Assembly: GCA_034435055.1 (NCBI GenBank)
Contig: DAOTXS010000065.1
Span: 1-64,000 of the forward strand
Direction: 5' to 3'
Length of the DNA stretch: 64,000 nucleotides
Source: Anaerolineae bacterium
GTDB lineage: Bacteria > Chloroflexota > Anaerolineae > UBA4142
In this document: positions 1-52,207 of the stretch, in pieces
Numbering within the stretch: position 1 is the stretch's first letter
Layout: every line of letters starts with the position of its first letter
Program-made: the position numbers and the translations under genes
The notes under the pieces: generated by a model
Database searches by the model: none
Seen by the model: the letters and a program-made list of their open reading frames with translations, nothing else
What the model was told of the DNA's origin: nothing

Positions 1-135
1 GGGGTCGTCCGCGTCCTCGCTTGCGTTTCGGCAGTAGCGGTGCAAGCACTGCCCATTGGTCATCGGTTAGTTCATGGCGACTCATACCCCCATTTTAGGC
101 AATTTCTCGATTTTTGAAATAGGCTCTAGACAAAG

Positions 136-176
136 ACGAAGGACGAACGACGAAAGATGTCATTCGTCCTTCGTCA
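136..176 (-). terminator. Perfect 13-bp inverted repeat (GACGAAGGACGAA / TTCGTCCTTCGTC) downstream of the 191..580 gene
   Basis: Stem arms at 136-148 and 164-176 read directly; only a weak T-tract follows on the minus strand. Confidence 0.3.
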
Positions 177-190
177 TCAATCATCCGTCA

Positions 191-580
191 TTACTTGAAT
201 TCCATCTCCAGGGCTTCTTTGATTTCGTTCAACGATAATCCTGCCAACCGACGCATCCGCGTCGTCGGTGTGTGTCCGTCAAAATCATAGTCGGACGAGG
301 CGTGGCGATGTACCCACACTTTGCCGACGCGCGCTTCGGTACCATTGTCATCGACACTGATGACGATGTTGAGATCATAAGAGATCTTGTCCTGTTTCCA
401 GGAAAGAATCCAGCGCATATTACTGCGGTCGATCTTGGGCTGGCTCGTTACTTTGCCTTTGCCCTTGAGATACGTTTGATTCGCTGCTTTGAGCAAATCG
501 ACAATGCCTTTACCCGATTCGCGTTTCACCTGTTCGATCACGCGGTTGATCCGTTCATTAGTTTCTGCCATCATCGCCAT
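191..580 (-). CDS. Hypothetical protein (129 aa), no recognisable family
   Basis: Intact ORF that overlaps the downstream end of the rhomboid gene by 10 nt in the same orientation; no motif recognised. Confidence 0.4.
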   Translation of the reverse strand: MAMMAETNERINRVIEQVKRESGKGIVDLLKAANQTYLKGKGKVTSQPKIDRSNMRWILSWKQDKISYDLNIVISVDDNGTEARVGKVWVHRHASSDYDFDGHTPTTRMRRLAGLSLNEIKEALEMEFK

Positions 581-1305
581 CCTTGAGGATAATCATCGAT
601 CAAATAATAAAACGATGAACGCCGCCGGCGCGCCCGTCCGATGAACGGCAGGATCAGCACTAGCCCGGTGATGAATCCGCCGATGTGTGCCCAAAATGCG
701 ATGCCGCCCGTCGCCGCCGCGGTGGTCGTCAATGAACCGATGCCATAGAAAAATTGCTGCACGAACCACCAACCGATCACAAAAATTGCCGGCAAATCAA
801 TCGTCGTGAAAAAGATAAAAATTGGCAACAAAATTCCGATGCGCGCCGTGGGGTACAAAATCAAATACGCGCCCAGCACGCCAGCAATCGCGCCGCTCGC
901 GCCAATTGTGGGAATGCGCGAAGGACCCATCACAAAAATTTGGACGAGTGCGGCGGCAATCCCGGCGAGCAAATAGAAAATCAAATAGCCCCAATGTCCC
1001 AACGTGTCTTCGATATTATCGCCGAACACGAACAGGAACAACATATTGCCGATGATGTGCGCCCACCCGCCGTGCAGAAATTGCGATGTGACAAGCGTGA
1101 GCCAGATGAACGGCGACACGTCGAATGGATTTGCCAGCGCGAGCAGAATGTTGCTTGGAATCACACCCCAGGTTGCGACGAGTCGTTCTAGCGCGCGGGT
1201 TGGCAACGATAGCTCAAACAGAAATGCAATCACGTTGATCGCGATGAGCGATAGATTGACCAGCGGAAATCGCCGAGACGGATTAGAATCGGAAATGGGA
1301 ATCAT
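571..1305 (-). CDS. Rhomboid family intramembrane serine protease
   Basis: Polytopic membrane protein carrying the GASGAIAG (GxSG) serine motif and a downstream HIGGF histidine helix, both typical of rhomboids. Confidence 0.8.
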
Positions 1306-1640
1306 TGTAAGCGGTCCAATTCTTGCCGCAATCGATTGATTTCCGCCGTCAATTCCTCTTCACGTTTTTGCATTTGTGCCTGCAAGTTTTCCAAGCGTTC
1401 TGTCAAATCGATAATAATTTCGACACCCGCGAGGTTCACGCCAAGTTCGTTCGTGAGCCGTTGAATTTTGCGCAAGCGTTCGATTTCTTTTTGCGAGTAC
1501 AACCGAATCTTGCCGGACGAGCGTGTCGGTTTTAGCAATCCCACGCGTTCGTAATAGCGCAACGTTTGCGGATGCACTTGAAGCAAGCGCGCCGCCACGC
1601 TGATCACAAAGATCGGTTCATCATCACGATGAAATTCCAT
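1302..1640 (-). CDS. hspR: MerR-family heat-shock transcriptional repressor HspR
   Basis: N-terminal MerR HTH ([13 protein letters not shown]...RLYS) with a C-terminal coiled coil; lies immediately downstream of a dnaJ-like gene, the classic cbpA/dnaJ-hspR arrangement. Confidence 0.75.
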
Positions 1641-1664
1641 TGGGTTGTTTATCTCCGTTCAATC

Positions 1665-1693
1665 GTAGGGATGACCCTCGTGGTCGCCCCTAC
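1665..1693. repeat. Palindromic repeat GTAGGGATGACC-CTCGTG-GTCGCCCCTAC (family copy 1)
   Basis: Near-perfect palindrome between the cbpA stop and the hspR start; the same motif recurs at 17380, 21785 and 36229. Confidence 0.7.
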
Positions 1694-1699
1694 CAATAT

Positions 1700-2608
1700 T
1701 TATCGTTTTCTCTTCTTTGCCAATTGCGAAAATATCTCGCGTTCTTCATGCGATAATTTTTCCGGCAGGACGACGCGCACCTTGGCGTACAAATCGCCGA
1801 ACACATTCGGTTCGTTCAAACGTGGCATTCCTTGCCCCGCTAAACGAAAGGTCTTGCCGCTTTGCGTCTCCGCCGGAATTTTCAGCGCGAGCGATCCTTT
1901 GAGCGTTGGGACATTCACTTCGCCACCGAGCAGCGCGATGTACAGATCGACCGGGATTTCGCAGCGCAGATCATCACCGTCGCGTTCAAAAATGGGATGC
2001 GGTGCAACTTGCACCCGCAAAAATAAATCGCCTGACGCGCCACCGCTGGAGCCGGCATAACCCTCGCCGGCGTACCGAATTTTCGAACCGGTTTTAACCC
2101 CCGCCGGAATTTTGATTTCCAAGCGCCGATTTTCTTTTTGTATGAGGCGTGTCGTTCCGCGGTACGCTTCCTCGAGCGTGATTTCGATGGGTTGTTCCAC
2201 GTCCTGTCCGCGTCGCGGACGCGCGCGCGCCGATTCGCCAAAGCCAAAGTTGCGGAAGAAATCAGAAAAGCCACCCAAGTCGCCAAAGATTTCGTTCAAG
2301 TCTTCGGCGTTGACGGTGCGATATTGCACGCCGCCGCCGCCCCACTGAAACGGACCCTGACCGCCCGCGCGTTGATATTGTTCGTACGCCTGCCAGTTTG
2401 CGCCGAGCGTGTCGTATTTCTTGCGCTTTTCCGAATCAGAGAGAACTTCGTACGCCTCGTTGACTTCTTTGAATTTCTCTTGCGCTTTCTTATCCGGGTT
2501 GACGTCCGGGTGCAGTTTGCGCGCCAAACGCCGATAAGCATTCTTGATCTCTTTTTCATCGGCGGTTTTGTTCACGCCCAAAATCTTGTAATAATCTTTG
2601 TATTCCAT
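1700..2608 (-). CDS. cbpA: DnaJ-domain co-chaperone, CbpA-like (J domain plus C-terminal substrate-binding domains, no zinc finger)
   Basis: [12 protein letters not shown]...HPDVN J-domain with the HPD motif at the N-terminus and a Gly-rich linker; no CxxCxGxG repeats. Start moved to the ATG at 2608, preceded by GGAG. The longer ORF reaches 2644. Confidence 0.8.
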
Positions 2609-2660
2609 TTTGGCTCCAAGCCAACGGCTCGTCATTTCTCGCAAAATGACACTGCGGAGA

Positions 2661-2689
2661 TTATACCACTCTCAATAAAGTATGTCAAC
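2661..2689 (-). promoter_or_regulatory. Consensus sigma70-type promoter for the cbpA-hspR operon (TTGACA-N17-TATAAT on the minus strand)
   Basis: On the plus strand, ATTATA at 2661-2666 and TGTCAA at 2684-2689, with exactly 17 nt between them. Confidence 0.6.
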
Positions 2690-2714
2690 TAAACTACATT
2701 AAAATTCGATAAAA

Positions 2715-2735
2715 CTTGATAAAATCATTATCAAG
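2715..2735. promoter_or_regulatory. HAIR-like inverted repeat CTTGATA-N7-TATCAAG (candidate HspR operator)
   Basis: Perfect 7-N7-7 palindrome lying between the two divergent promoters. It resembles the HspR-associated inverted repeat consensus CTTGAGT-N7-ACTCAAG. Confidence 0.55.
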
Positions 2736-2739
2736 TCTA

Positions 2740-2768
2740 TTGACAAATAAAAATTACAGTCGTATAAT
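2740..2768 (+). promoter_or_regulatory. Consensus sigma70-type promoter for the tandem hsp20 genes (TTGACA-N17-TATAAT)
   Basis: TTGACA at 2740-2745 and TATAAT at 2763-2768 with a 17-nt spacer. A 5'UTR hairpin (2769-2797) and GGGAGGA precede the ATG at 2820. Confidence 0.6.
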
Positions 2769-2819
2769 CCGAATCGAAAAATGACCGAGCGATTCGGTTG
2801 AAAAATCAGGGAGGAAAAT

Positions 2820-3266
2820 ATGAGCAGTCTAATTCGATGGGATCCGTTTGATCGATTGTCGCTCCGGAGCGCGATGGATCGACTTTTCGATGATTCATTC
2901 GTGCGTCCCGGTTTTGGCTGGTTCGCGCCGGCGAGCGCGGTGGAGTTGGCAATCGATATGTACGAAACCAAGGACGATGTTGTGGTCAAAGCGGCGTTAC
3001 CCGGCATCAAGCCGGAGGAGGTCGAGGTGACCATCACCGGCGATTCGTTGATGATTCGTGGCGAATCGACAGAAGAGAACCAAGTCAAGGAAGAGAATTA
3101 TCTTCGTAAAGAGCGCCGCTTTGGCTCGTTCTGTCGATCGATTACCCTGCCCAGCGGCATCAAAGCAGACAAAGCCGATGCGGTGTTCGAAAATGGTGTG
3201 CTGACTTTGAAAATTCCGAAAGCCGAAGAAACCAAGCCCAAAACCATCAAGGTGAAAACGAAATAA
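2820..3266 (+). CDS. Hsp20/alpha-crystallin family small heat shock protein
   Basis: Alpha-crystallin domain with the C-terminal IKV motif; sequence runs WDPFDRL...GVLTLKIPK. Confidence 0.9.
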   Translation: MSSLIRWDPFDRLSLRSAMDRLFDDSFVRPGFGWFAPASAVELAIDMYETKDDVVVKAALPGIKPEEVEVTITGDSLMIRGESTEENQVKEENYLRKERRFGSFCRSITLPSGIKADKADAVFENGVLTLKIPKAEETKPKTIKVKTK

Positions 3267-5740: not shown

Positions 5741-6499
5741 ATGCTCAAAGTTGAGAATCTCACCAAAGTTTACCCCAATGGCACGGTCGCGCTCAAGGAT
5801 GTCAGTTTCCAAGTCAAGGATGGCGAATTTCTCGCTGTGATCGGTTTGAGCGGTTCAGGCAAGTCAACGTTGTTGCGTTGCATCAATCGCTTGATCGAAC
5901 CGACCGCCGGACGAATTTTGTGGAATGACGTTGAACTGACTGCGCTGTCGGCGGACGAGATGCGCAAAATGCGACGCCAGATGGGAATGGTGTTCCAGCA
6001 ATTCAATCTGGTCAAGCGTTCCTCGGTTATTACCAATGTCCTCTCCGGGCGTTTGGGTTATGTGTCTTCCTCTGCTAGTCTCATCAATTATTTTTCCCCT
6101 GCGGATCAAGAGCGCGCGCTCAACAACCTGGAGCGGATGGGTTTGCGCGACAAAGCGTACGTCCGCGCCGACTCACTTTCCGGCGGTCAACAACAACGCG
6201 TCGCGATTGCGCGCGCGTTGATGCAAGAGCCCAAACTGATGTTGGCGGACGAACCGGTCGCGTCGCTCGATCCGGTCTTGTCGCACTCGATCCTCAAATA
6301 TCTCGAACAACTGAACAAAGTGGACAAGATCACGGTCCTGTGCAGTCTGCATTTCTTGGACCTTGTTCATCGTTACGCCACCCAAGCCATCGCGCTAAAA
6401 GATGGACGCTTGGTGTTTCAAGGTCTGCCTCAACAAATCGACGACGCGCAGTTCAAAGCAATTTTTGGACAAGAAGCGGAACGCGTCACTATTCTCTGA
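5741..6499 (+). CDS. phnC: Phosphonate ABC transporter ATP-binding protein PhnC
   Basis: Walker A GLSGSGKST, ABC signature LSGGQQQR, Walker B and D-loop; PhnC-like overall. Confidence 0.85.
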   Translation: MLKVENLTKVYPNGTVALKDVSFQVKDGEFLAVIGLSGSGKSTLLRCINRLIEPTAGRILWNDVELTALSADEMRKMRRQMGMVFQQFNLVKRSSVITNVLSGRLGYVSSSASLINYFSPADQERALNNLERMGLRDKAYVRADSLSGGQQQRVAIARALMQEPKLMLADEPVASLDPVLSHSILKYLEQLNKVDKITVLCSLHFLDLVHRYATQAIALKDGRLVFQGLPQQIDDAQFKAIFGQEAERVTIL

Positions 6500-6537: not shown

Positions 6538-8526
6538 TTGAAACCTATGAATTCATCCTCTTCTCCCCTAAAGAATGTATCGCTTGCGACAATATTTTCC
6601 GCGCTCGTTCCCGGCGCGGGACAATTCTATCTGGACAAGCGCGGGCGCGGCGTCGGAATTTTTTCCGCGCTGGTGGTGCTTGCGTTTCTCATCCATTGGG
6701 CGCTCGATAATTTCAAGGTCGGTACGGTAACGGCCGGTGCGATAGTAACAAGCTGGCTCTACGTTCCGCTCGCGCTCTTTTGGTTGTGGAATGTGATAGA
6801 TGCTTACCGGCTTGGGCGGGGTGAACGTTCGCCCGCGTTAATTGCTTACCTGATGGCGGCGATCATTATCTATTCCATCGGTTGGCAAGTAACCGATGTT
6901 AATCTGGATCGCCTGGTCAATCGATTCCAAGATATTCAAGCCGTTTCGCGCGCGCTCTTCGCCCCCGACCTCTTTGCGCGCGATGAAAAAGGCAATTGGG
7001 GTCCCAGCGAAAATTTCGGCGAGATTATCGGCAAAATTGCCGACCGACCTGCGCCGGAATTTTTGGTAAACCTAGGCTTGTTTCGAAAAGAAGATGTTGT
7101 CCCCACGCCGATTCTCGGCAAGATGGCGGAAACGATTGCCATCGGTTTGATGGCAACACTCCTGTCAACGATCTTTGCACTCCCGCTCAGTTTTCTTGCC
7201 GCGCACAATATTATGGCGCGCCTTCCCGGCGGCACGCTGATCTATTACGTGATGCGCGCATTCTTGAACTTTGTTCGCTCGGTGGACACACTGATCTGGG
7301 CAGTCATTATGGTCGTGTGGGTGGGGCTGGGTTCATTTGCCGGCGTTCTCGCGCTGACGATTCACTCGATTGCCGCGTTGGGCAAATTGTATTCGGAAGA
7401 GATCGAGCATATTGACCCAGGTCCCATTGAAGCGATTACGGCAACTGGCGCGAATCTGCTCCAAGTTATTCGTTATGCGGTGATTCCGCAAATCATTCCG
7501 CCGTTTCTCGCCTTCACCTTGTTGCGTTGGGACATTAATATGCGGACGGCGACCGTTGTCGGTCTTGTTGCCGGCGGCGGCATCGGCTTTTTTGTAGTCG
7601 AGACGATTCAAAAAGGTGGCTATGAACAATACGCGGCGGCGTTGTGGGTCGTCGCTATCGTTATCATTCTGGTGGATTATATTAGCGCGCGGTGGCGCGA
7701 ACGAATTTTGATTGGCGACACCACTGTTGCCGTTGCTACACCCAAGCCATTCTATCGTTCGCCGCGCACGATGTTCTACATTTTGCTGGCGCTGGTATTG
7801 CTCGTTGCCAGTTATCAACTGTCCGGCATCGAGCCGCGCAAGATGTTTGAACCAGCACCCACCTTTGTCCGACTGGTAGGCGATTTCGTAACGATTGACC
7901 TGACGCCCGCGGTGTTGAACAACGTGATCAAGCAAATGCTGGTTACGTTGTTCCAAGCTTTGCTCGCGACGACGTTGGGTGGCATCGTCGCGATTCCGTT
8001 CAGTTTTCTTGCCGCGCGTAATTTGATGGGCGGCAATCTGCTCTCGCTCGTGATTTATTACGTAACGCGCGGCACGCTCAATGTCTTGCGTTCGATTGAG
8101 GCGTTACTCTACGTCTCCATCTTCCTGATCTGGGTTGGCGTGGGACCGTTTGCTGGAATGTTGGCGCTGGCGATCACCTCCTTCGCGCTGATCGGCAAAC
8201 TATTCTCGGAGGCAATCGAGAACATTGATCCAGGTCCGATGGAAGCCATCACAGCGACCGGGGCGACACCTTTGCAAACCATCGTCTATGCGATTTTGCC
8301 ACAAATCATTCCGCCGTTCGTCTCGTACTGGATTTATCAATGGGACATCAACGTGCGGATTTCGACGATTGTTGGTTTCGCCGGCGGCGGTGGCGTCGGT
8401 TTGTTGCTCAACAATTACTTTGGTGTTTTGCAATATCACAAAGCCGGCACCGTGGTTGCGATCATCGTGCTTGTCGTGACGATAATGGACTTTGCGAGCG
8501 CGAAGATTCGGGAAAAGATGGTGTAA
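6538..8526 (+). CDS. phnE: Phosphonate ABC transporter permease, fused duplicated PhnE, with an N-terminal TM2-like domain
   Basis: Two PhnE-type permease repeats, each carrying the EAA-like ...IDPGP(I/M)EAITATGA... loop. An N-terminal ~100 aa region has the PGAGQFYL...NVIDAYR motif. Confidence 0.8.
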   Translation: MKPMNSSSSPLKNVSLATIFSALVPGAGQFYLDKRGRGVGIFSALVVLAFLIHWALDNFKVGTVTAGAIVTSWLYVPLALFWLWNVIDAYRLGRGERSPALIAYLMAAIIIYSIGWQVTDVNLDRLVNRFQDIQAVSRALFAPDLFARDEKGNWGPSENFGEIIGKIADRPAPEFLVNLGLFRKEDVVPTPILGKMAETIAIGLMATLLSTIFALPLSFLAAHNIMARLPGGTLIYYVMRAFLNFVRSVDTLIWAVIMVVWVGLGSFAGVLALTIHSIAALGKLYSEEIEHIDPGPIEAITATGANLLQVIRYAVIPQIIPPFLAFTLLRWDINMRTATVVGLVAGGGIGFFVVETIQKGGYEQYAAALWVVAIVIILVDYISARWRERILIGDTTVAVATPKPFYRSPRTMFYILLALVLLVASYQLSGIEPRKMFEPAPTFVRLVGDFVTIDLTPAVLNNVIKQMLVTLFQALLATTLGGIVAIPFSFLAARNLMGGNLLSLVIYYVTRGTLNVLRSIEALLYVSIFLIWVGVGPFAGMLALAITSFALIGKLFSEAIENIDPGPMEAITATGATPLQTIVYAILPQIIPPFVSYWIYQWDINVRISTIVGFAGGGGVGLLLNNYFGVLQYHKAGTVVAIIVLVVTIMDFASAKIREKMV

Positions 8527-8546
8527 CGAGTTGTCATTTGGTGGCA

Positions 8547-8583
8547 GGGCATTCGTGTACGTTTGCGAATGCCCTTTTCTTTT
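8547..8583 (+). terminator. Rho-independent terminator after the phn operon
   Basis: GGGCATTCG...CGAATGCCC stem followed by TTTTCTTTT. Confidence 0.75.
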
Positions 8584-8773
8584 GGGGATTGGTTGGCAGT
8601 AAGAAAGTATTCGCTAACGGAATATCATGTATTTCTGGGACACGCAATTAAATTTTTTGCAATTCTTGTCTGATTGTGTTATAGTTATTGTGCAAACTTA
8701 TTCTTTGACCCGCGGGCTGCGGATATGAGTAACTGACTGATCGCTGATTCACTCTTTTCAATAGGAGAATACG

Positions 8774-10492
8774 GTGATCGACTATTGCTCGTGCGGCGAG
8801 TTTTTGATTTCCCAAGCGCCCGTCACCTGGGATGCGCTCTTGCGCGCCGGGGTGACGGGTGTTGTCTTTTTTGCAACAATTGCGAATAATCGAGTTGATT
8901 TTGAAGACGCAATCAAGCCGACCGATCCCAAGTCTTCGATGACGCGGAGCGAAAAACTGATTTTTTGGGGAGGCATATATTTTCTTGCTTTCTTATTTAG
9001 TGTTGTGGGTTGGTTCGTCCTTGCGTTCCTCGCATGGTACGTCAAGCGCATACCTGAACGGCGTTTGCCAATGACGAGTTTGTTGACCGGGAATCAAACA
9101 AAATTTTATGATTGGCTAAGTGATTTTTTGTGGAGTTGGCTAAAATCATCAATCTTTTGGACGCCTATCTTTGGGATTGGTGAGATGATAATTGGTGTGT
9201 TACTAGGATTCGTGCTTAGTTTCTTTGGATACCCCGCAACTGCTTTATTATTAAATCCTCTTTTTCTTGTAAGCGTGGCGTATATGACAGTTGTTATCGC
9301 CATTCTCTATTCACTCAGCAATACTATCTTCTTCAATTGGAAAGCACTATTTTGGCAAGCTGAACCGGCGGCTCGATTGCTTGTTGGGAATGAAAACTAT
9401 GACATAATGACCGACGAAGAAAAGGAAAATGTCAAGCGGAATGTTGTCGACTCGCAGGTGGGAATAAATAAGGCGACAATCGTTGTGGCTGGCGGTAAAA
9501 TTCAGACGCTCAATCCCCCGGCGGGTAATTTAGCCCGGTTTGGTGGGCCAGGCGTCTTGATTGTGCAGGAGGGGCATGCGGTTGTCCTTGAACGAGGCGG
9601 ACGTCGTTCGCGTATCGTCGGGACAGGTGTATGGCATTTAGGGATGTTCGAGCGGATTAACACGATTATTCCTCTGGCTCAACGCACTGTTAATATCGAA
9701 GTCGAAAACGTGGTCACGGAAGATCATGTGCTGGTCGACAAGATTAAACTCCTGGCGTTCACTCGTTTAGATCCCGGAGACAAATCGCACAAGAACGGAG
9801 ATTATCCCTTTGACGACAAGGTGATCAATGATTTGGTTTGGTCGCCCAAATTAGGACCTGAAGTTTATGATTGGTCGAGTGCGGTAAAAAGTGTTGCCGA
9901 TACGGCGATACGTGATATGGTCGCAAGATTGAAGCTCGATGAATTGATTCTCGCGTCAGGTCAAGCACGCGACACCTTGCGAACCAATCTCAAGGACGCA
10001 ATCAATCGCATTACCAAAGATAAACTGGGAGTAGCGGTCAGTAGTGTGGTCATTGGCGAAGTTGTTATCCCAGATGAGGCACGGCAAAAATTGCTTGAGC
10101 GTTGGCTTATGGATTGGGAAGCCCAAATCGCGCAGGTCAGAGCAACTGTAACTGTATCTCAGGCAGAAGCGGATAAACGAGCTCACATTGCGCGAGGCGA
10201 AGGTGAACGCGAATATCTGCGAAAACAAGGTGAAGGGAAAGCCCTAGCTGTGCGTGAAGAAAATTTGGCAAAAGCCGAAGGAGAATCTGAGATAATCCGT
10301 CAATTCTTGTTGGCGTTAGCCCAGTTGCCAATTAACGAAGAGCGCAAAGCCGATCTTGTCAAAACATTACTTCAAGGTGAGCAATACCGCGATGCGATGC
10401 GGATGTGGTCAAGCATGGGACGCTCTGCCCGAGGTGCAGGATTCCGAAACGTTGATGGTGGAGACAGCGGTACTGCGGCTACTGAACCATAA
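8774..10492 (+). CDS. Polytopic membrane protein with a C-terminal SPFH/band-7 (flotillin/stomatin-like) domain
   Basis: About four N-terminal TM helices. The SPFH core runs IVVAGGKIQTL...RTVNIEVENVVTEDHVLV, followed by a charged coiled coil (ARGEGEREYLRKQGEGKA). Lower GC than the flanks. The GTG start is uncertain; an internal ATG at MTRSEK... is an alternative. Confidence 0.65.
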   Translation: MIDYCSCGEFLISQAPVTWDALLRAGVTGVVFFATIANNRVDFEDAIKPTDPKSSMTRSEKLIFWGGIYFLAFLFSVVGWFVLAFLAWYVKRIPERRLPMTSLLTGNQTKFYDWLSDFLWSWLKSSIFWTPIFGIGEMIIGVLLGFVLSFFGYPATALLLNPLFLVSVAYMTVVIAILYSLSNTIFFNWKALFWQAEPAARLLVGNENYDIMTDEEKENVKRNVVDSQVGINKATIVVAGGKIQTLNPPAGNLARFGGPGVLIVQEGHAVVLERGGRRSRIVGTGVWHLGMFERINTIIPLAQRTVNIEVENVVTEDHVLVDKIKLLAFTRLDPGDKSHKNGDYPFDDKVINDLVWSPKLGPEVYDWSSAVKSVADTAIRDMVARLKLDELILASGQARDTLRTNLKDAINRITKDKLGVAVSSVVIGEVVIPDEARQKLLERWLMDWEAQIAQVRATVTVSQAEADKRAHIARGEGEREYLRKQGEGKALAVREENLAKAEGESEIIRQFLLALAQLPINEERKADLVKTLLQGEQYRDAMRMWSSMGRSARGAGFRNVDGGDSGTAATEP

Positions 10493-10529
10493 AGTATCCA
10501 ATCCCATTGTATTCTTTTGGGGAGGAACT

Positions 10530-11563
10530 ATGAGCATCATCAAAGATTGTCCCAATCGTGCCCAGTGCATTATTGATCTGTTATCGCGACGCGTTGAAGA
10601 AAGAAAAGGCGTTGCGTGGACCGCGCTTCTTTCCGAGGGTCAAAATCTTTGCAATGCCAGAAATGAAACGAGAGCTTTACAAAGTTTCGAACAGTCGCTC
10701 AAACTAAGTGATGATCTTGCCGCCGTGAATGACAAGGATGCTAATCGACTCAAGGCAACGGCGCTGACGTGTATTGGGGCTCTGGGTTTGTGTAAAAACG
10801 AAATCGGTAGCGCTATCGTACGTTTTCGTCAAAGCGCTAGTATTTTTAATGCCGATGGTGATCATTATGGTGAAGCCGTTGCTCTCTTTGCCCTAGCGCA
10901 AGCCTATGAGGCGCGGAAAGAGTGGCGCGAAGCGTTCCGAAATTACGAATGGAGTCAGCGCGCGCTATCACACATTAGCAGTGATTCTGCAACAATCTTT
11001 TTGCGCCAATTGGTCGAAAAGCACCACGGTGAAGCCATTAAGGAATGGGAAAAGATGCCCGAAGTCGTTCAAGCACCGCAGGGAACACTCGGCTTTCTTC
11101 CGATTTTCAACCGGATTCCGGCCGGCGACCCGCGTTCTATTTCTGAACAACCAACTGATTATGTAGAAACAGACCGTTTAATTATTGCCGACAAGCCGTA
11201 TTATGTCGTAAATAAAGATTCATCCCGGCTTCGTCTTACTTTCTCAATCGACAAAGCGTACATCGCTTTTCGTGTTGCTGGCGATAGTATGAATAATGCG
11301 GGAATTGACGACGGTGATTACGTAATTTTGAGAACGAATTCGGTGACAGGCTCCGAGCCGGTGCCAGAAATCGGTGATATTGTTGCGATTGTATTTCCGG
11401 ATGATAATGTTGTCACGCTTAAGCGATATCGCCGGAAAGGCACGCAAGTGGTTTTTGAACCCGATAGCACTAATCCCAGTCACAAGCCCTTTCAGTTTGA
11501 CAAAGCTAGCTCCGGTTTCCCTGGTAAGATTGTTGGAATTCATATAGCAACATTAAAGCCGCT

Positions 11564-11567
<4 letters not shown>
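10530..11567 (+). CDS. TPR-repeat protein fused to a C-terminal S24 (LexA/UmuD-like) self-cleaving peptidase domain; no HTH
   Basis: S24 motifs VAGDSMNNAGIDDGDYVIL (Ser nucleophile) and VTLKRYRRKGTQVVFEPDSTN (Lys base). The N-terminal ~200 aa are TPR-like helical repeats. Start moved to the ATG at 10530, preceded by GGAGGA. The tabulated ORF starts at 10356, inside the previous gene. Confidence 0.65.
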
Positions 11568-12448
<881 letters not shown>

Positions 12449-12497
12449 CTGCAACCTGCAACTTGAAACCTGTGACCTGAAACTTGGAGCTTGAATG
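12449..12497. repeat. Heptamer tandem repeat x7: CTGCAAC CTGCAAC TTGAAAC CTGTGAC CTGAAAC TTGGAGC TTGAATG
   Basis: Read directly. The final unit contains the ATG of the next gene. Confidence 0.8.
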
Positions 12498-13160
12498 TCC
12501 GATCCCCTCGCACTCGTTCTCGCATTTCTCTACGTCTCGATCATCCTCGCGCTTGGCGAAGGTTTGCGGCGCGGGCTAAAACTCAGCGTCGAGTTCACAC
12601 GCAAGTTTGTGCACATCGGCGTGGGAATGGTGTCGTTCTTGCTCGTCTGGCTTTTTCAAGCGTGGCAATGGGCAATCATTCCGCCGCTCGCGTTCATCGT
12701 CATCAATTACATTTCGTACCGCCGCCAGATTTTTGCCGGAATGGAAACCGGCGAACGCGGGCAACTGGGTACCGTTTACTTTCCAATTTCTTTTGCGATT
12801 CTGATTCCGTTGTTGTGGTCGATGCCCGCGTTGCTTGTTGCCAGTTTAATGCCGATGACGTGGGGCGATGCGTTCGCGGCGATCATCGGTAAACGATTTG
12901 GCGCGCGCAACTTTACGATGTTGGGACACACGCGGTCGATGGAAGGCTCGGCGACGATGTTTGTGTTCAGTTTCGTTGCGACGTTTCTTGCGCTCGTTGT
13001 CTTCGCCCAGCCGATTGTCACAAGTCTCGTACTCGCGCTGGTCGTTGCCATCGTCGCAACCATCGTCGAAGCGTTCTCGCCGTTTGGCATCGATAATCTC
13101 ACCGTGCCGTTGACATCGGCGATTGTGTTGATTTTGTTGAACGGCGTCATCGGCAAATAA
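12495..13160 (+). CDS. Integral membrane protein of the CTP-dependent dolichol kinase / phosphatidate cytidylyltransferase-like (DUF92) family
   Basis: About six TM helices and a GDAFAAIIGKRFG motif; the family assignment is tentative. Confidence 0.5.
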   Translation: MSDPLALVLAFLYVSIILALGEGLRRGLKLSVEFTRKFVHIGVGMVSFLLVWLFQAWQWAIIPPLAFIVINYISYRRQIFAGMETGERGQLGTVYFPISFAILIPLLWSMPALLVASLMPMTWGDAFAAIIGKRFGARNFTMLGHTRSMEGSATMFVFSFVATFLALVVFAQPIVTSLVLALVVAIVATIVEAFSPFGIDNLTVPLTSAIVLILLNGVIGK

Positions 13161-49095: not shown

Positions 49096-49884
49096 ATGCG
49101 CGAACGACTCTATCGCGTCCAAGCCATTGTGTTGCGCCGCACCGATCACGGCGAAGCGGATCGCTTGTTGACGCTGTTCACGCCGGAGCGTGGTAAAATT
49201 CGCGCGAATGCAAAAGGCGCGCGCAAACCGTCGAGCCGGAAAAGCGGACACGTCGAGTTGTTCACGCACGTCGATTTGATGTTGGCAAAGGGTCAGCAAA
49301 TCGATGTGGTAACACAAGCCGACACAATCGATGCGTTCATCGCGCTGCGCGACAATCTTGATCGCGTGTCGTACGCGTACTATTTGCTTGAACTCGTCGA
49401 TAAGTTTTCCGAAGAGGAAACCGAGAATCACCCGGTGTTCGATTTGCTCTTGCGCGCGCTTGGCTGGCTGGGCGATCAAGCGACGAAGCCGGATTTGCTT
49501 GCGCGATTTTTCGAGTTGCGCTTGTTGCAGTACGTCGGTTATCGACCGCAGTTGTTCAGTTGTGTCAATTGCGGCAAAATCATCGAGCCAATCGAAAATT
49601 ATTTCAGCGCGGAAGCCGGCGGCGTCCTTGATCCGGATTGCGTGGCAACCCAGCGCGAGAAGATTGCCGGACACGCGCGCGACGCGCAAGTGATTTCGTT
49701 GAACGCGCTCAAGGTGTTGCGCTATTTGCAGACGCGTGAATGGGAAACAGTGCGAGTTTTGAATTTGAATGCGGATGTACTAAGCGAAGTGGAAATTTTG
49801 CTTCAACGATACATTGGGCATCATTTGGAACGAAACTTGAAAAGCATCGAGTTTTTGCGAGAGTTGAAATCGACAAAAGGGTAG
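49096..49884 (+). CDS. recO: DNA repair protein RecO
   Basis: RecO N-terminal OB fold (LYRVQAIVLRRTDHGEADRLLTLFT) and a C-terminal Cys4 motif (CVNCGK...). TATAAT at 49083-49088 lies 7 nt upstream of the ATG at 49096, so the transcript is probably leaderless. An alternative ATG is at 49087. Confidence 0.8.
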   Translation: MRERLYRVQAIVLRRTDHGEADRLLTLFTPERGKIRANAKGARKPSSRKSGHVELFTHVDLMLAKGQQIDVVTQADTIDAFIALRDNLDRVSYAYYLLELVDKFSEEETENHPVFDLLLRALGWLGDQATKPDLLARFFELRLLQYVGYRPQLFSCVNCGKIIEPIENYFSAEAGGVLDPDCVATQREKIAGHARDAQVISLNALKVLRYLQTREWETVRVLNLNADVLSEVEILLQRYIGHHLERNLKSIEFLRELKSTKG

Positions 49885-49889
49885 GCATT

Positions 49890-51269
49890 ATGCCAGACAT
49901 GGAAACCATCGTCTCGTTGTGCAAGCGGCGCGGCTTTGTCTTTCAAGGGTCGGAAATTTACGGCGGCATCGGCGGTTTTTGGGATTACGGTCCGCTCGGC
50001 GTCGAGTTGAAAAATAATATCAAGCGCGCGTGGTGGAAAGCGATGGTGCAAGATCGCGACGACATCGTCGGCATCGATGCGGCGATCATTATGAATCCGA
50101 ATGCCTGGGTCGCCAGCGGTCACGTCGAAACCTTTACCGATCCGCTCGTCGAGTGCAAAAATTGCCACAAGCGTTTCCGCGAAGATCAAATTCCCGGCGA
50201 CGCGTGTCCGAATTGCGGCAACAAGAACACAATGACCGAGCCGCGTCAATTCAATGTGATGTTCAAAACGCACGTCGGTCCGGTGGAAGACGATGCGGCG
50301 GTTGCGTACTTGCGTCCCGAAACGGCGCAGGGCATCTTTGTCAATTTTGAAAATGTGCGCGAATCGATGCGCAAGAAAATTCCATTCGGCATCGCGCAAA
50401 TCGGCAAAGCGTTTCGCAACGAGATTATCACTGGCAATTTTATTTTCCGCGACCGCGAGTTTGAGCAGATGGAAATGGAATTCTTCATCAAGCCGGGTAC
50501 GGAAGACGAGTGGCACGACCAATGGCGCGATTGGCGACTGGCGTGGTGGAAGAAAACTTTCCACATCAGCGACAATAATATTCGCATCAAAGTGATTCGC
50601 AAAGATCGTACGTATATCATCGGTCCCGATCCTGATGACGTCAAAACCGAAAAGCCGCCGCACTATTCCAAAGGCAATTACGACATCGAGTATCGTTTTC
50701 CGATGGGGTGGAACGAAATCGAAGGGATTGCCAGTCGGACGGACTGGGATTTAGGCGCGCATCAAAAATTGAGCGGCAAGAGTTTGGCGTACTTTGACGA
50801 CGAAACCAAGGAGAGTTACATCCCCTACGTCGTCGAGCCGTCCATGGGCGTGGATCGCGCGGTGCTCGTCGCGTTGTTCGAGAATTACAAAGAAGAGCAG
50901 GTGCGGAACGAAAAGCGGGTCGTACTTCAGTTACCCAAGACACTTGCGCCGATCAAGGTCGCAGTTCTGCCGCTGGCGCGCAATCGTCCGGAAATCGTCG
51001 CGATCGCGCAGAAACTTGTGGCGGATTTGAAACCGCATATGATGGCGATGTACGACGACAGTGCGAGCATCGGTCGTCTGTATCGCCGGCAAGACGAAAT
51101 CGGCACGCCGTTCTGCGTGACGGTCGATCATCAATCCGCAATTCCCGGCGATGAAAAGTACGATGGCAGAGTAACCATCCGTGATCGTGATTCGATGGAG
51201 CAGATTCGGGTTTCACTTGACCAAGTCAAGAGTATGTTAGTTAGTCGATTAGGCACATGGTTGCTGTAA
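49890..51269 (+). CDS. glyQS: Glycine--tRNA ligase (homodimeric GlyQS type)
   Basis: Class II aaRS motifs (FVFQGSEIYGG; GIAQIGKAFRNEI) and a C-terminal anticodon-binding domain. Start moved to the ATG at 49890. Confidence 0.9.
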   Translation: MPDMETIVSLCKRRGFVFQGSEIYGGIGGFWDYGPLGVELKNNIKRAWWKAMVQDRDDIVGIDAAIIMNPNAWVASGHVETFTDPLVECKNCHKRFREDQIPGDACPNCGNKNTMTEPRQFNVMFKTHVGPVEDDAAVAYLRPETAQGIFVNFENVRESMRKKIPFGIAQIGKAFRNEIITGNFIFRDREFEQMEMEFFIKPGTEDEWHDQWRDWRLAWWKKTFHISDNNIRIKVIRKDRTYIIGPDPDDVKTEKPPHYSKGNYDIEYRFPMGWNEIEGIASRTDWDLGAHQKLSGKSLAYFDDETKESYIPYVVEPSMGVDRAVLVALFENYKEEQVRNEKRVVLQLPKTLAPIKVAVLPLARNRPEIVAIAQKLVADLKPHMMAMYDDSASIGRLYRRQDEIGTPFCVTVDHQSAIPGDEKYDGRVTIRDRDSMEQIRVSLDQVKSMLVSRLGTWLL

Positions 51270-52132
51270 TGAACAATGCTTCTTGGTTTATCATTCTCCT
51301 AAAACGCATCAAGCGATTCCTGCATAAAGGCTACTTGTCTGCTGTAGATGTGCTGGCGCGACCCCAAAAAACTAGAATATTTGGGGCGCAGGTAGACCTT
51401 GTTCCGCCGCTTCGATTGATGGATGATGGACCAGTTGATTATGTAAGTTTCAAGCAAAATGGAGAGGAATACTTTGATATCTTTGTGCGTCTCTGCCATC
51501 TTCAGCGCACAGATCGTGTTCTTGATGTCGGATGCGGGATCGGTAGAAAAACACTGCCACTCTTAACTTATCTTGATCCTCAACTCGGCAGTTACATTGG
51601 AATAGATGCTTTCAAGTCTCATGTCGATTGGTGCCAACAAAAGATCCAGCCGCGCTATCCTAATTTCCATTTTCATTACGTGGATGTTTGGAGTCAACGG
51701 TACAACCCTGCGGGTACAATTAAGGCGGTCGATTACATTTTCCCATTTAGAGATGGCGAATTTGATTTTGTGATTGCAGCCTCTGTGTTTACCCATATGT
51801 TTATGACTGACGTCCGTCATTATATGTCAGAGATTCAGCGGATACTCGCGCTAGGTGGACGAGGAATGATCTCGTTCTTTTTGCTTAATTCAAAATCGGA
51901 ACGATTAATTGGCGAAGGCAAGTCGACCGTACCACTCATTTATTCTGTTGAACCGGGCTGCAAGGCTGACAACCCTAATCGATTGGAAAGTGCTGTGGGG
52001 CATAGCGAAGATGAGATTCTCGAAATGTGTGCGAGATATGGAATCAAAACTCGAATCTATTATGGCGCGTGGTGCGGTCGTCAGGAATTTCTGACATATC
52101 AAGATGTGCTTTCTCTGGAAAAGATAAAGTAA
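51269..52132 (+). CDS. Class I SAM-dependent methyltransferase
   Basis: Motif I VLDVGCGIGRKT. Conspicuously lower GC than the neighbours. ATG overlaps the glyQS stop (TAATG). Confidence 0.6.
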   Translation: MNNASWFIILLKRIKRFLHKGYLSAVDVLARPQKTRIFGAQVDLVPPLRLMDDGPVDYVSFKQNGEEYFDIFVRLCHLQRTDRVLDVGCGIGRKTLPLLTYLDPQLGSYIGIDAFKSHVDWCQQKIQPRYPNFHFHYVDVWSQRYNPAGTIKAVDYIFPFRDGEFDFVIAASVFTHMFMTDVRHYMSEIQRILALGGRGMISFFLLNSKSERLIGEGKSTVPLIYSVEPGCKADNPNRLESAVGHSEDEILEMCARYGIKTRIYYGAWCGRQEFLTYQDVLSLEKIK

Positions 52133-52207
52133 GAAAACTGCGCCGCAACCAACGATGCTTGCCCAAATGCGCTGGATATATTTTTTAATCACATAGGAGG
52201 ATTCGAC

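Follow-up and report, generated by a model that had tools for sequence, protein, structure and literature searches.

The DNA analyzed here (hereafter the window) is a 64,000-nucleotide stretch of contig DAOTXS010000065.1 from an Anaerolineae bacterium of the phylum Chloroflexota (assembly GCA_034435055.1), in which a compact segment at 8590-11567 carries two forward-strand genes between the end of a phosphonate ABC transporter operon (phn) and psuG. The first (gene 1) codes for a polytopic membrane protein with an SPFH (Band 7) domain, and the second (gene 2) for a soluble protein in which tetratricopeptide (TPR) repeats are fused to a peptidase domain of family S24, i.e., the C-terminal domain of LexA and lambda CI (Table 1). 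The pair is probably an undescribed membrane-based stress or defense module.

The gene 1 protein is a member of the SPFH superfamily: it passes the gathering cut-off of the Pfam Band_7 family (PF01145; 54.3 bits, 2.3e-14; cut-off 23.6), its AlphaFold2 (AF2) model (mean predicted local distance difference test score [pLDDT] 72.3) displays an SPFH fold that continues into a long coiled coil, and a membrane anchor is predicted at its N-terminus. Over most of residues 234-431 the model has block pLDDT values of ~74-91, with one block at 61, and Foldseek searches recover erlin, HflK/C, QmcA, prohibitin, stomatin, and flotillin (E 3e-10 to 1e-4), with target-normalized TM-scores of 0.65-0.83 against isolated SPFH cores and 0.32-0.58 against full-length cage subunits. 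The initial annotation, which was made from the letters of the window, had described a flotillin/stomatin-like SPFH domain and about four transmembrane (TM) helices. The SPFH domain stands, but the conserved part of the protein has only three hydrophobic segments, with Kyte-Doolittle peaks centered at residues 69-82, 135-151, and 164-178 and AF2 helices spanning residues 58-91, 109-150, and 162-204; a basic loop with an amphipathic helix (residues 92-125) separates the first TM segment from the second. From the distribution of lysine and arginine residues and the positive-inside rule, we infer a topology with the N-terminus outside and the SPFH domain along with the rest of the protein in the cytoplasm. 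The C-terminal tail that follows the helix of residues 434-516 is partly disordered in the model. Homologs number 39, all of them from Chloroflexota/Anaerolineae where the source is named. Residues 1-55 are missing from most of these (alignment A2), and the start of gene 1 is uncertain because most homologs begin at the equivalent of Met56 and residues 1-54 are modeled as disordered (pLDDT <50); the true start could be the ATG at 8939, which encodes Met56.

The gene 2 protein is a member of peptidase family S24 and possesses the full LexA-type apparatus for self-cleavage, which it is predicted to undergo. It matches Pfam Peptidase_S24 (PF00717) at 46.8 bits (2.7e-12; cut-off 23.3), and a profile search of the PDB with it matched 16 LexA sequences with the GDSM and lysine motifs aligned. 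Its β-rich C-terminal domain recovers LexA (3k2z, 1.6e-6), Escherichia coli LexA (7b5g), and the lambda CI C-terminal domain (1kca; target-normalized TM-score [TMt] 0.70, root-mean-square deviation 3.4) in Foldseek searches, such that the S24 fold is found both by profile and by structure. The catalytic dyad (Ser253 and Lys298) and the residues I196, P197, A198, G199, and P201 of the loop motif IPAG.P are invariant across the 17 homologs of alignment A1, which extend down to 40% identity. The Ala-Gly-type site foreseen in the initial annotation is present, with cleavage predicted between Ala198 and Gly199; its counterpart in the cleavage loop of E. coli LexA we take to be LPLVGRVAAGEP. A family-specific insertion of ~25 residues lies between this site and the catalytic core. 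The protein is not a LexA/CI repressor, given that it has no DNA-binding domain (neither a helix-turn-helix [HTH] nor a LexA_DNA_bind match in Pfam) and that the NCBIfam LexA equivalog (TIGR00498) aligns with its C-terminal part only, at 55.3 bits and below the cut-off of 110.95. In the position where LexA/CI carries its DNA-binding domain, the AF2 model (pLDDT 79.7) places a TPR-like domain, which is structurally matched by MamA, the TPR2A domain of Hop, and the TPR domain of KLC; the Pfam matches of this region to TPR_12 and TPR_2 are weak and under the Pfam cut-offs. The architecture proposed earlier, viz., TPR repeats with an intact S24 domain and no HTH, is retained. No TM segment is present in this protein (maximum Kyte-Doolittle value, KD19, 1.27). 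A longer reading of 403 residues from a TTG at 10356 was rejected, as it overlaps gene 1 and the ATG at 10530 fits the N-termini of all homologs.

Table 1. Features of the two-gene module, its borders, and related loci. Positions without a locus name refer to the window.
Feature	Position	Strand	Basis or remarks
Gene 1, polytopic membrane SPFH (Band 7) protein	8774..10492	+	572 aa from GTG 8774; Shine-Dalgarno sequence AGGAG
Membrane anchor, three hydrophobic helices (aa 58-91, 126-152, 153-186)	8945..9331	+	Hydropathy and AF2 helices
SPFH domain (aa 234-431) with family-specific motif FGGPGVLIVQEGHAVVLERGG	9473..10066	+	AF2, Foldseek, invariant columns of alignment A2
Coiled-coil helix (aa 434-516, 83 residues) and tail (aa 517-572, ...QYRDAMRMWSSMGRSARG...)	10073..10489	+	AF2 helix 434-516
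Gene 2, TPR and peptidase S24 protein, soluble	10530..11567	+	345 aa; ATG 10530 behind GGGGAGGA
TPR-like helical repeat domain (aa 10-175), eight helices	10557..11054	+	AF2, helices in 10-175, block pLDDT mostly 80-94
S24 (LexA/CI C-terminal) domain	11085..11564	+	Ser253 (GDSM, codon 11286-11288), Lys298 (TLKR, codon 11421-11423)
Predicted self-cleavage site Ala198-Gly199 within LPIFNRIPAGDP	11121..11126	+	Residues invariant in 17 homologs
Intrinsic terminator ending the upstream phosphonate ABC transporter operon; left border of the module	8546..8585	+	12-pair stem AGGGCATTCG...CGAATGCCCT, then TTTTCTTTT
Candidate sigma-70-like promoter	8657..8685	+	TTGCAA-17-TATAGT, extended TG, 9/12 consensus matches
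psuG (pseudouridine-5'-phosphate glycosidase)	11564..12448	+	Pfam Indigoidine_A, 3.4e-126
Junctions of the extra gene	L001 1100-1122 and 2826-2850; L009 10789-12112; window 11555-11590		Imperfect ~20-bp duplication of the S24/psuG junction
KAP-type operon	L059/L060 1812-7155; L061/L062 1656-7116; L033 379-5712		SPFH-like protein 538-599 aa, TM-SPFH protein ~410 aa
P0149 (TM-SPFH-S24 single chain)	L066 342-2207		Stand-alone gene, no partner gene

There is strong evidence that the two genes are functionally coupled, viz., the recurrence of the pair, a remotely related operon, Rosetta-stone fusions, and a TPR domain that is shared with alternative partners. An SPFH gene followed by a TPR-S24 gene on the same strand is present at 12 or more distinct loci, i.e., the window and at least 11 others (L003, L006, L009, L010, L012/L017, L015, L018, L022, L028, L030, and a truncated copy in L023), with the S24 proteins being 24-99% identical to that of the window; the two genes, whose co-occurrence elsewhere had been put up for a neighborhood search, thus recur in the same order and orientation. 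Pairs outside the phnE-psuG slot (L012/L017 and L018) are found among TetR and ABC-2 genes, and in L012 a gene for a PhdYeFM antitoxin (5796-6023) lies directly 5' of the SPFH gene.

A remote four-gene operon, found at three distinct loci, codes for a KAP NTPase, a 538-aa SPFH-like protein, a 408-aa TM-SPFH protein, and a TPR-S24 protein, and is nowhere described in the literature that we searched. Its 408-aa protein aligns with the SPFH family of the window at 98.3% in hhalign (E 2e-14), inclusive of the GGPGVL...VV.E motif, and the 538-aa protein does so at 93%. An exhaustive profile search with the S24 subfamily over 1.84 billion representatives yielded 59 clusters at E <= 1e-30, and the best matches include single chains in which TM-SPFH and S24 regions are fused (P0149, 621 aa; P0140, 770 aa). 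The N-terminal half of P0149 matches gene 1 (E 4e-15) and its C-terminal half gene 2 (37% identity, E 1e-22). The Ala-Gly site is retained in remote relatives and takes the form IAAG in the SPFH-S24 fusions. P0140 also carries a second, degenerate S24-like repeat. High-GC S24 matches from a scan of metagenomes (L038, L052-L056, and others) were set aside, since they resemble LexA/UmuD-type genes accompanied by open reading frames (ORFs) of the size of ImuB and DnaE2, a resemblance that is one of ORF size and order only.

The shared TPR domain provides a clue as to how the two proteins might interact. In seven other species, the TM-SPFH gene is followed not by a TPR-S24 gene but by one for a protein of 450-500 aa with a TPR-like N-terminus, a proline-rich linker, TM helices, and a second SPFH domain (TPR-linker-TM-SPFH2), and the N-terminal domain of these partners aligns with the TPR domain of the TPR-S24 proteins at 97.3% in hhalign (E 2e-11). 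The type of C-terminal tail on the first SPFH protein tracks the type of TPR in the partner and not the C-terminal domain of that partner: tail A (...QYRDAMRMWSSMGRS...) accompanies the window-type TPR, and tail B (...IRYxEALEK...KTFIVGD...) accompanies the L029-type TPR. L028 is the discriminating case, as it combines tail B with an L029-type TPR, yet its partner has an S24 C-terminal domain. We propose on the basis of this co-variation that the TPR domain might recognize and dock on the SPFH tail. The subunits of SPFH cages of known structure bring their C-termini together at the apex. Cleavage of the SPFH tail in trans at a LexA-type Ala-Gly is not supported, in that the RGAGF of the window tail is not conserved. 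The same SPFH family also includes giant proteins of 1076-1189 aa that combine WD40 repeats with a TM region at the N-terminus and an SPFH domain at the C-terminus (L020 6176-9643, L025 3305-6535, and L028 4079-7648), the gene for each of which is followed by one for a TPR-domain partner.

An accessory conflict-type role of the module is plausible because its variants recruit TIR, CAP12-TIR, STAND, SLOG, CHAT/EAD8, and KAP NTPase domains. In a sibling strain with ~96% nucleotide identity to the window (L009/L001), the S24 gene and psuG are separated by an additional gene of 1.7 kb. This gene codes for a TM-SPFH protein with a C-terminal TIR domain of the CAP12/Pycsar type, which (in P0066) matches the PADLOC model PDC-S35 at 5.5e-70; the extra gene looks like a recent insertion and the window junction ancestral because the sequence of the S24/psuG junction is repeated imperfectly on either side of it (Table 1). 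In L006, a TIR_2 protein matching Ago-associated TIR and ThsB in PADLOC is encoded between the SPFH and S24 genes, and L022 adds a STAND NTPase. The phnE-psuG slot of a Ca. Aquidulcis metagenome-assembled genome (MAG; L021 3501-9503) contains, upstream of the SPFH gene, genes for a 209-aa protein, a SLOG (LSDAT) protein, and a 957-aa TIR-EAD8-CHAT protein; this locus has no TPR-S24 gene. The KAP NTPase of the remote operon matches PDC-S20, QatA, and PifA in PADLOC, whereas the SPFH-like proteins of that operon and P0024 match no PADLOC model. Relatives of the S24 domain further occur in other architectures, including TIR-S24 (P0019), TPR-coiled coil-S24-TRADD-N-EAD7 (P0124), and trypsin-pentapeptide-S24x2 (P0112), which suggests that LexA-type autoproteolysis may be used more widely as a switch in bacterial systems with death-domain-like or TIR components. 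Band7-like domains have previously been described as scaffolding domains in the effector position of the vWA proteins of vWA-MoxR (VMAP ternary) systems (Kaur et al., 2020; PMC7159879), which are found mainly in multicellular bacteria, including chloroflexi (PMC7159879).

The module has resided for long in its present position. The order phnE, SPFH, TPR-S24, psuG, and clpB (the last on the reverse strand) recurs in L003/4/5/31, L006/19, L015, and L030, in which the S24 proteins are 41-70% identical to that of the window and ClpB 80-85%. L010 has the same order except for a different upstream gene; near its module (1-3253) are a HEPN and nucleotidyltransferase pair and a protein with SLFN_AlbA_2 and HATPase_c_4 domains. 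In L003, L006, and L010, there is a 4-nucleotide overlap between the called S24 and psuG genes, and in L015 the tblastn matches of the two overlap in like manner. GC content at third codon positions (GC3) of the module is ~10-30 points under that of its flanks in every relative examined, irrespective of the GC content of the host (L001, L003, L006, L010, L012, and L021). Low GC is hence a persistent property of the module rather than a mark of recent arrival, because both the synteny and the GC3 deficit are kept in relatives; possible causes are repeated exchange of alleles from a shared, AT-richer pool and weak codon selection. The view of the segment as an island in the sense of a recent insertion was accordingly given up: divergent relatives retain the site and the GC3 deficit, the first 20 kb of the window contain no tRNA, and at the module itself there are no flanking repeats and no integrase or other mobility gene. 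A prophage or viral origin was likewise rejected, given that IMG/VR holds no relative of the SPFH protein and that the S24 matches therein are generic.

The module diverges much faster than its neighbors, with the SPFH proteins being 37-47% identical where ClpB is 80-85% identical, and its distribution is narrow and patchy, with only 15 loci among 185,579 species genomes, all from Chloroflexota. Homologs with a named source are again all from Chloroflexota, mostly MAGs of Anaerolineae. Outside its own close strain cluster, the SPFH protein of the window is at most 50% identical to its orthologs (L009, at 93%, lies outside this comparison); the S24 protein of the window is 70% identical to that of L030, and the SPFH proteins of L003 and L030 share 71% identity. 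These values suggest that the SPFH gene of the window may have been replaced or may have diverged quickly independently of its partner.

In composition, the segment at 8590-11567 has 46.8% GC as against a mean of 54.0% for the window (standard deviation 2.1% for windows of equal size) and is the lowest-GC stretch of its size in the 64 kb as well as the most deviant in tetranucleotide usage. The initial annotation was thus right about the AT-richness, and the sliding GC and tetranucleotide analysis that it called for places this very segment at the extreme; the 3-kb flanks, which it had put at ~60% GC, measure 52.7% and 55.0%. The difference is located at third codon positions, with GC3 of 0.464 in the SPFH gene and 0.428 in the S24 gene versus 0.62-0.69 in phnE, psuG, the next ORF, and clpB. 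A second, milder dip (~48% GC) at 49740-54976 was set aside as a comparable feature, as the region of 50-53 kb contains ordinary housekeeping genes; the dip comprises genes for a class II aminoacyl-tRNA synthetase and a methyltransferase and the start of that for pyruvate phosphate dikinase. The borders of the segment are as they had been drawn: on the left, a hairpin with a 12-bp stem at 8546-8575 followed by a T tract closes the phn operon, and on the right the stop codon TGA of the S24 gene (11565-11567) overlaps the psuG start in a shared GTGATG (11564-11569). The leader of gene 1 is AT-rich (41% GC); an Rfam scan of 8480-8960 returned no riboswitch or other family, its sole match being sub-threshold and sitting on the terminator hairpin, and a riboswitch or regulatory RNA in the leader was rejected on these grounds. 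We found no terminator between the S24 gene and psuG; the latter is a housekeeping neighbor outside the function of the module, with which the S24 gene is probably co-transcribed. Located 3' of psuG (12495-13160) is a gene for a 221-aa polytopic membrane protein without a Pfam match, which has positional counterparts in several relatives (235 aa in L001 and 216 aa in L006).

We favor the reading that the pair constitutes a conflict/defense-type module with an autoproteolytic switch docked via TPRs on an SPFH assembly, and give it a probability of about one half. The recruited domains and the evolutionary behavior of the module point to a role of the anti-phage or abortive-infection type in filamentous Anaerolineae. 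Under this proposal, the SPFH protein would oligomerize into a ring or dome on the cytoplasmic side of the membrane, with the TPR domains docking the S24 protein onto its C-terminal tails and the S24 domains dimerizing in the manner of LexA C-terminal domains. A trigger, which might be RecA filaments on single-stranded DNA or another signal of infection or envelope stress, would then flip the cleavage loop into the active site, and cleavage at Ala198-Gly199 would part the S24 domain from its TPR anchor and irreversibly change the state of the SPFH assembly. The output might be a perturbation of the membrane via the polytopic anchor in the two-gene form and the release or activation of TIR effectors of the NADase type in the expanded variants. 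For a trigger other than RecA, a passage in PMC7101444 offers a precedent in IrvR, a LexA-like protein whose autocleavage is independent of RecA.

Several observations weigh against this reading. The role of the TM anchor as a membrane effector is a conjecture, and the two-gene form contains no recognizable enzymatic effector. In searches of PADLOC-DB 2.0, the SPFH protein matched no model and the S24 protein gave only a TPR match at E 0.01; nor are the genes directly beside the module in the window defense genes. Pairwise identities of the SPFH and S24 proteins across loci correlate only moderately in a mirror-tree comparison (r = 0.69), with the window SPFH protein as an outlier. The argument for docking is one of qualitative co-variation, which shared ancestry could mimic. 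Finally, the pair is stably syntenic beside housekeeping genes and keeps its stop/start overlap in several genera; such synteny, together with the probable co-transcription with psuG, is what one would sooner expect from a resident cellular function than from a mobile defense system.

These last points are also those that would be expected if the pair were a housekeeping module for membrane-protein quality control or envelope stress, wherein the S24 peptidase, docked by its TPR domain, would process client proteins or the SPFH tail in trans and thereby control the assembly of a membrane microdomain. The pairing of an SPFH protein with a partner protease is a classic theme of the superfamily, the best structural matches of gene 1 are the cages of HflK/C-FtsH and QmcA-YbbJ, the position between phnE and psuG-clpB is stable in many genera, and the second SPFH paralog that serves as the partner in many loci recalls the HflK/HflC heteromers. 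A further parallel is the Pyrococcus STOPP peptidase PH1510, which uses a Ser-Lys dyad to cut the stomatin encoded in the same operon (PH1511) at its C-terminus. We nevertheless consider this alternative unlikely: the strict conservation of the LexA-type Ala-Gly loop, coupled with the lack of a conserved Ala-Gly in the SPFH tails, favors self-cleavage over processing in trans, and a quality-control function would not lead one to expect the recurrent recruitment of TIR, CAP12-TIR, CHAT/EAD8, STAND, SLOG, and KAP domains, the S24-TIR and S24-TRADD-N/EAD7 fusions, the narrow and patchy distribution, the fast divergence, or the difference in gene content between strains that are 96% identical.

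The proximity of the S24 domain to genuine LexA repressors in both sequence and fold, and the resemblance of its cleavage loop to that of LexA, raise another alternative, namely, an output device of the SOS response, in which a LexA paralog without DNA-binding capacity restrains the SPFH protein until it is cleaved by activated RecA (RecA*), whereupon DNA damage alters membrane physiology (growth arrest or dormancy) independently of phages. Most of the characterized S24 autoproteases respond to RecA*, according to a passage in PMC7101444. The LexA equivalog score below its cut-off (55 versus 110.95 bits) and the family-specific insertion between the cleavage site and the catalytic core nonetheless set the protein apart from LexA, and the immune-type accessory domains fit the sensing of invaders better, such that this scenario appears rather improbable; it overlaps the conflict/defense reading in its trigger because phage infection can itself generate RecA*. 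That the two are merely unrelated low-GC accessory genes brought together in a variable slot is hardly tenable. The content of the phnE-psuG slot does vary among relatives, and the similarity patterns of the SPFH and S24 proteins partly differ across loci, but strand and order are the same at no fewer than 12 distinct loci, some of them in other genomic contexts, the KAP-type operon has the same pairing, and the TPR domain is common to the alternative SPFH2 partners; the single-chain SPFH-S24 fusions, taken with the conserved order, effectively refute a fortuitous adjacency.

Returning to the conflict/defense reading, we tentatively entertain the broader notion that the module represents an unrecognized class of immune or cell-fate systems, in which an SPFH cage on the inner side of the membrane would serve as the signaling platform, a docked or fused LexA-type autoprotease as the irreversible trigger, and opening or remodeling of the cage as the event that permeabilizes the membrane or unleashes TIR NADases. 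If so, it would be a prokaryotic counterpart of the autoproteolytic licensing by FIIND/ZU5 domains in animal inflammasomes, and SPFH scaffolds would gain a direct immune role via a categorically new mechanism. To our knowledge, the functions of bacterial SPFH proteins are poorly defined beyond their partnering with proteases (HflK/C-FtsH and stomatin-NfeD), even though the superfamily is universal; S24 domains, the textbook autoproteolytic switches, have almost always been studied within DNA-binding repressors; and immunity in Chloroflexota has seen essentially no experimental exploration. The coupling of SPFH and S24 would extend both paradigms, with the switch being re-targeted from an operator to a membrane scaffold by means of a TPR domain or a fusion. 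The recurrent recruitment of TIR, CAP12-TIR, CHAT/EAD, TRADD-N, STAND, and KAP NTPase domains suggests that filamentous Chloroflexota possess a new family of systems for defense or programmed death. With two genes, or a single one in the fused form, the system is small, and it is sharply testable. The literature that we searched contains no description of the SPFH and S24 combination, in line with the view of the initial annotation that no described system combines them.

Among known systems, the operons that pair SPFH with NfeD proteins (QmcA-YbbJ; PH1511 with PH1510) are similar in that a dedicated partner gene adjoins that of a coiled-coil SPFH protein which is anchored in the membrane and faces the cytoplasm, and QmcA-YbbJ (8z5g) is among the top structural matches of gene 1. 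The long NfeD/STOPP partner, too, is a serine peptidase with a Ser-Lys dyad. However, the present pair is not an SPFH-NfeD operon, as its partner is not an NfeD protein: neither Pfam nor NCBIfam detects an NfeD domain in gene 2, and Pfam finds no OB-fold or ClpP-like domain there; the gene instead codes for an S24 autoprotease of clan SF and LexA type that is joined to a TPR adaptor and has its self-cleavage loop intact. The pair also differs in its anchor of three TM helices, in place of a hairpin or one TM segment, and in the immune-type domains of its variants. HflK/HflC-FtsH resembles the pair in its SPFH fold with a long coiled coil (9cz2, 7vhq, and 7wi3), in having two SPFH paralogs, as do many of the related loci, and in regulating a protease. 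In contrast, there is no linked FtsH here, the protease being a small soluble autoprotease and not an AAA+ machine, and the predicted orientation of the SPFH domain is cytoplasmic rather than periplasmic.

With LexA, lambda CI, and UmuD, the gene 2 protein shares the C-terminal fold, the Ser-Lys dyad, the Ala-Gly loop, and presumably the character of a one-shot switch that parts an N-terminal domain from a dimerizing C-terminal domain; it differs in possessing TPRs in lieu of a winged-helix/HTH domain, in the insertion after the cleavage site, and in having a membrane scaffold rather than an operator as its partner. Lastly, the variants of the module draw upon the same domain vocabulary, viz., TIR, CAP12-TIR, CHAT, EAD7/EAD8, TRADD-N, STAND, SLOG, KAP NTPase, WD40, and TPR, as the conflict systems described by Kaur, Burroughs, Iyer, and Aravind (PMC7159879, PMC8195603) and the TIR-based defense systems (ThsB of Thoeris, the CAP12-type TIR of Pycsar/CBASS, and PDC-S35), and the filamentous Chloroflexota host agrees with the occurrence of such conflict systems in multicellular bacteria. 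Autoproteolysis via FIIND/ZU5 domains has been proposed as a route of effector release in these systems (PMC7159879, PMC8195603). The pair departs from them in that it has no vWA-MoxR or GTPase core and that its core proteins are without a PADLOC match; both papers treat Band7 as a scaffolding domain only and make no mention of an S24/LexA-type peptidase or of its pairing with SPFH (PMC7159879, PMC8195603). The pair would act most like a scaffold of the SPFH type that has its own partner peptidase, except that here the peptidase would be a switch that cleaves itself and is attached through a TPR adaptor, and that the evolutionary setting resembles that of immune systems.

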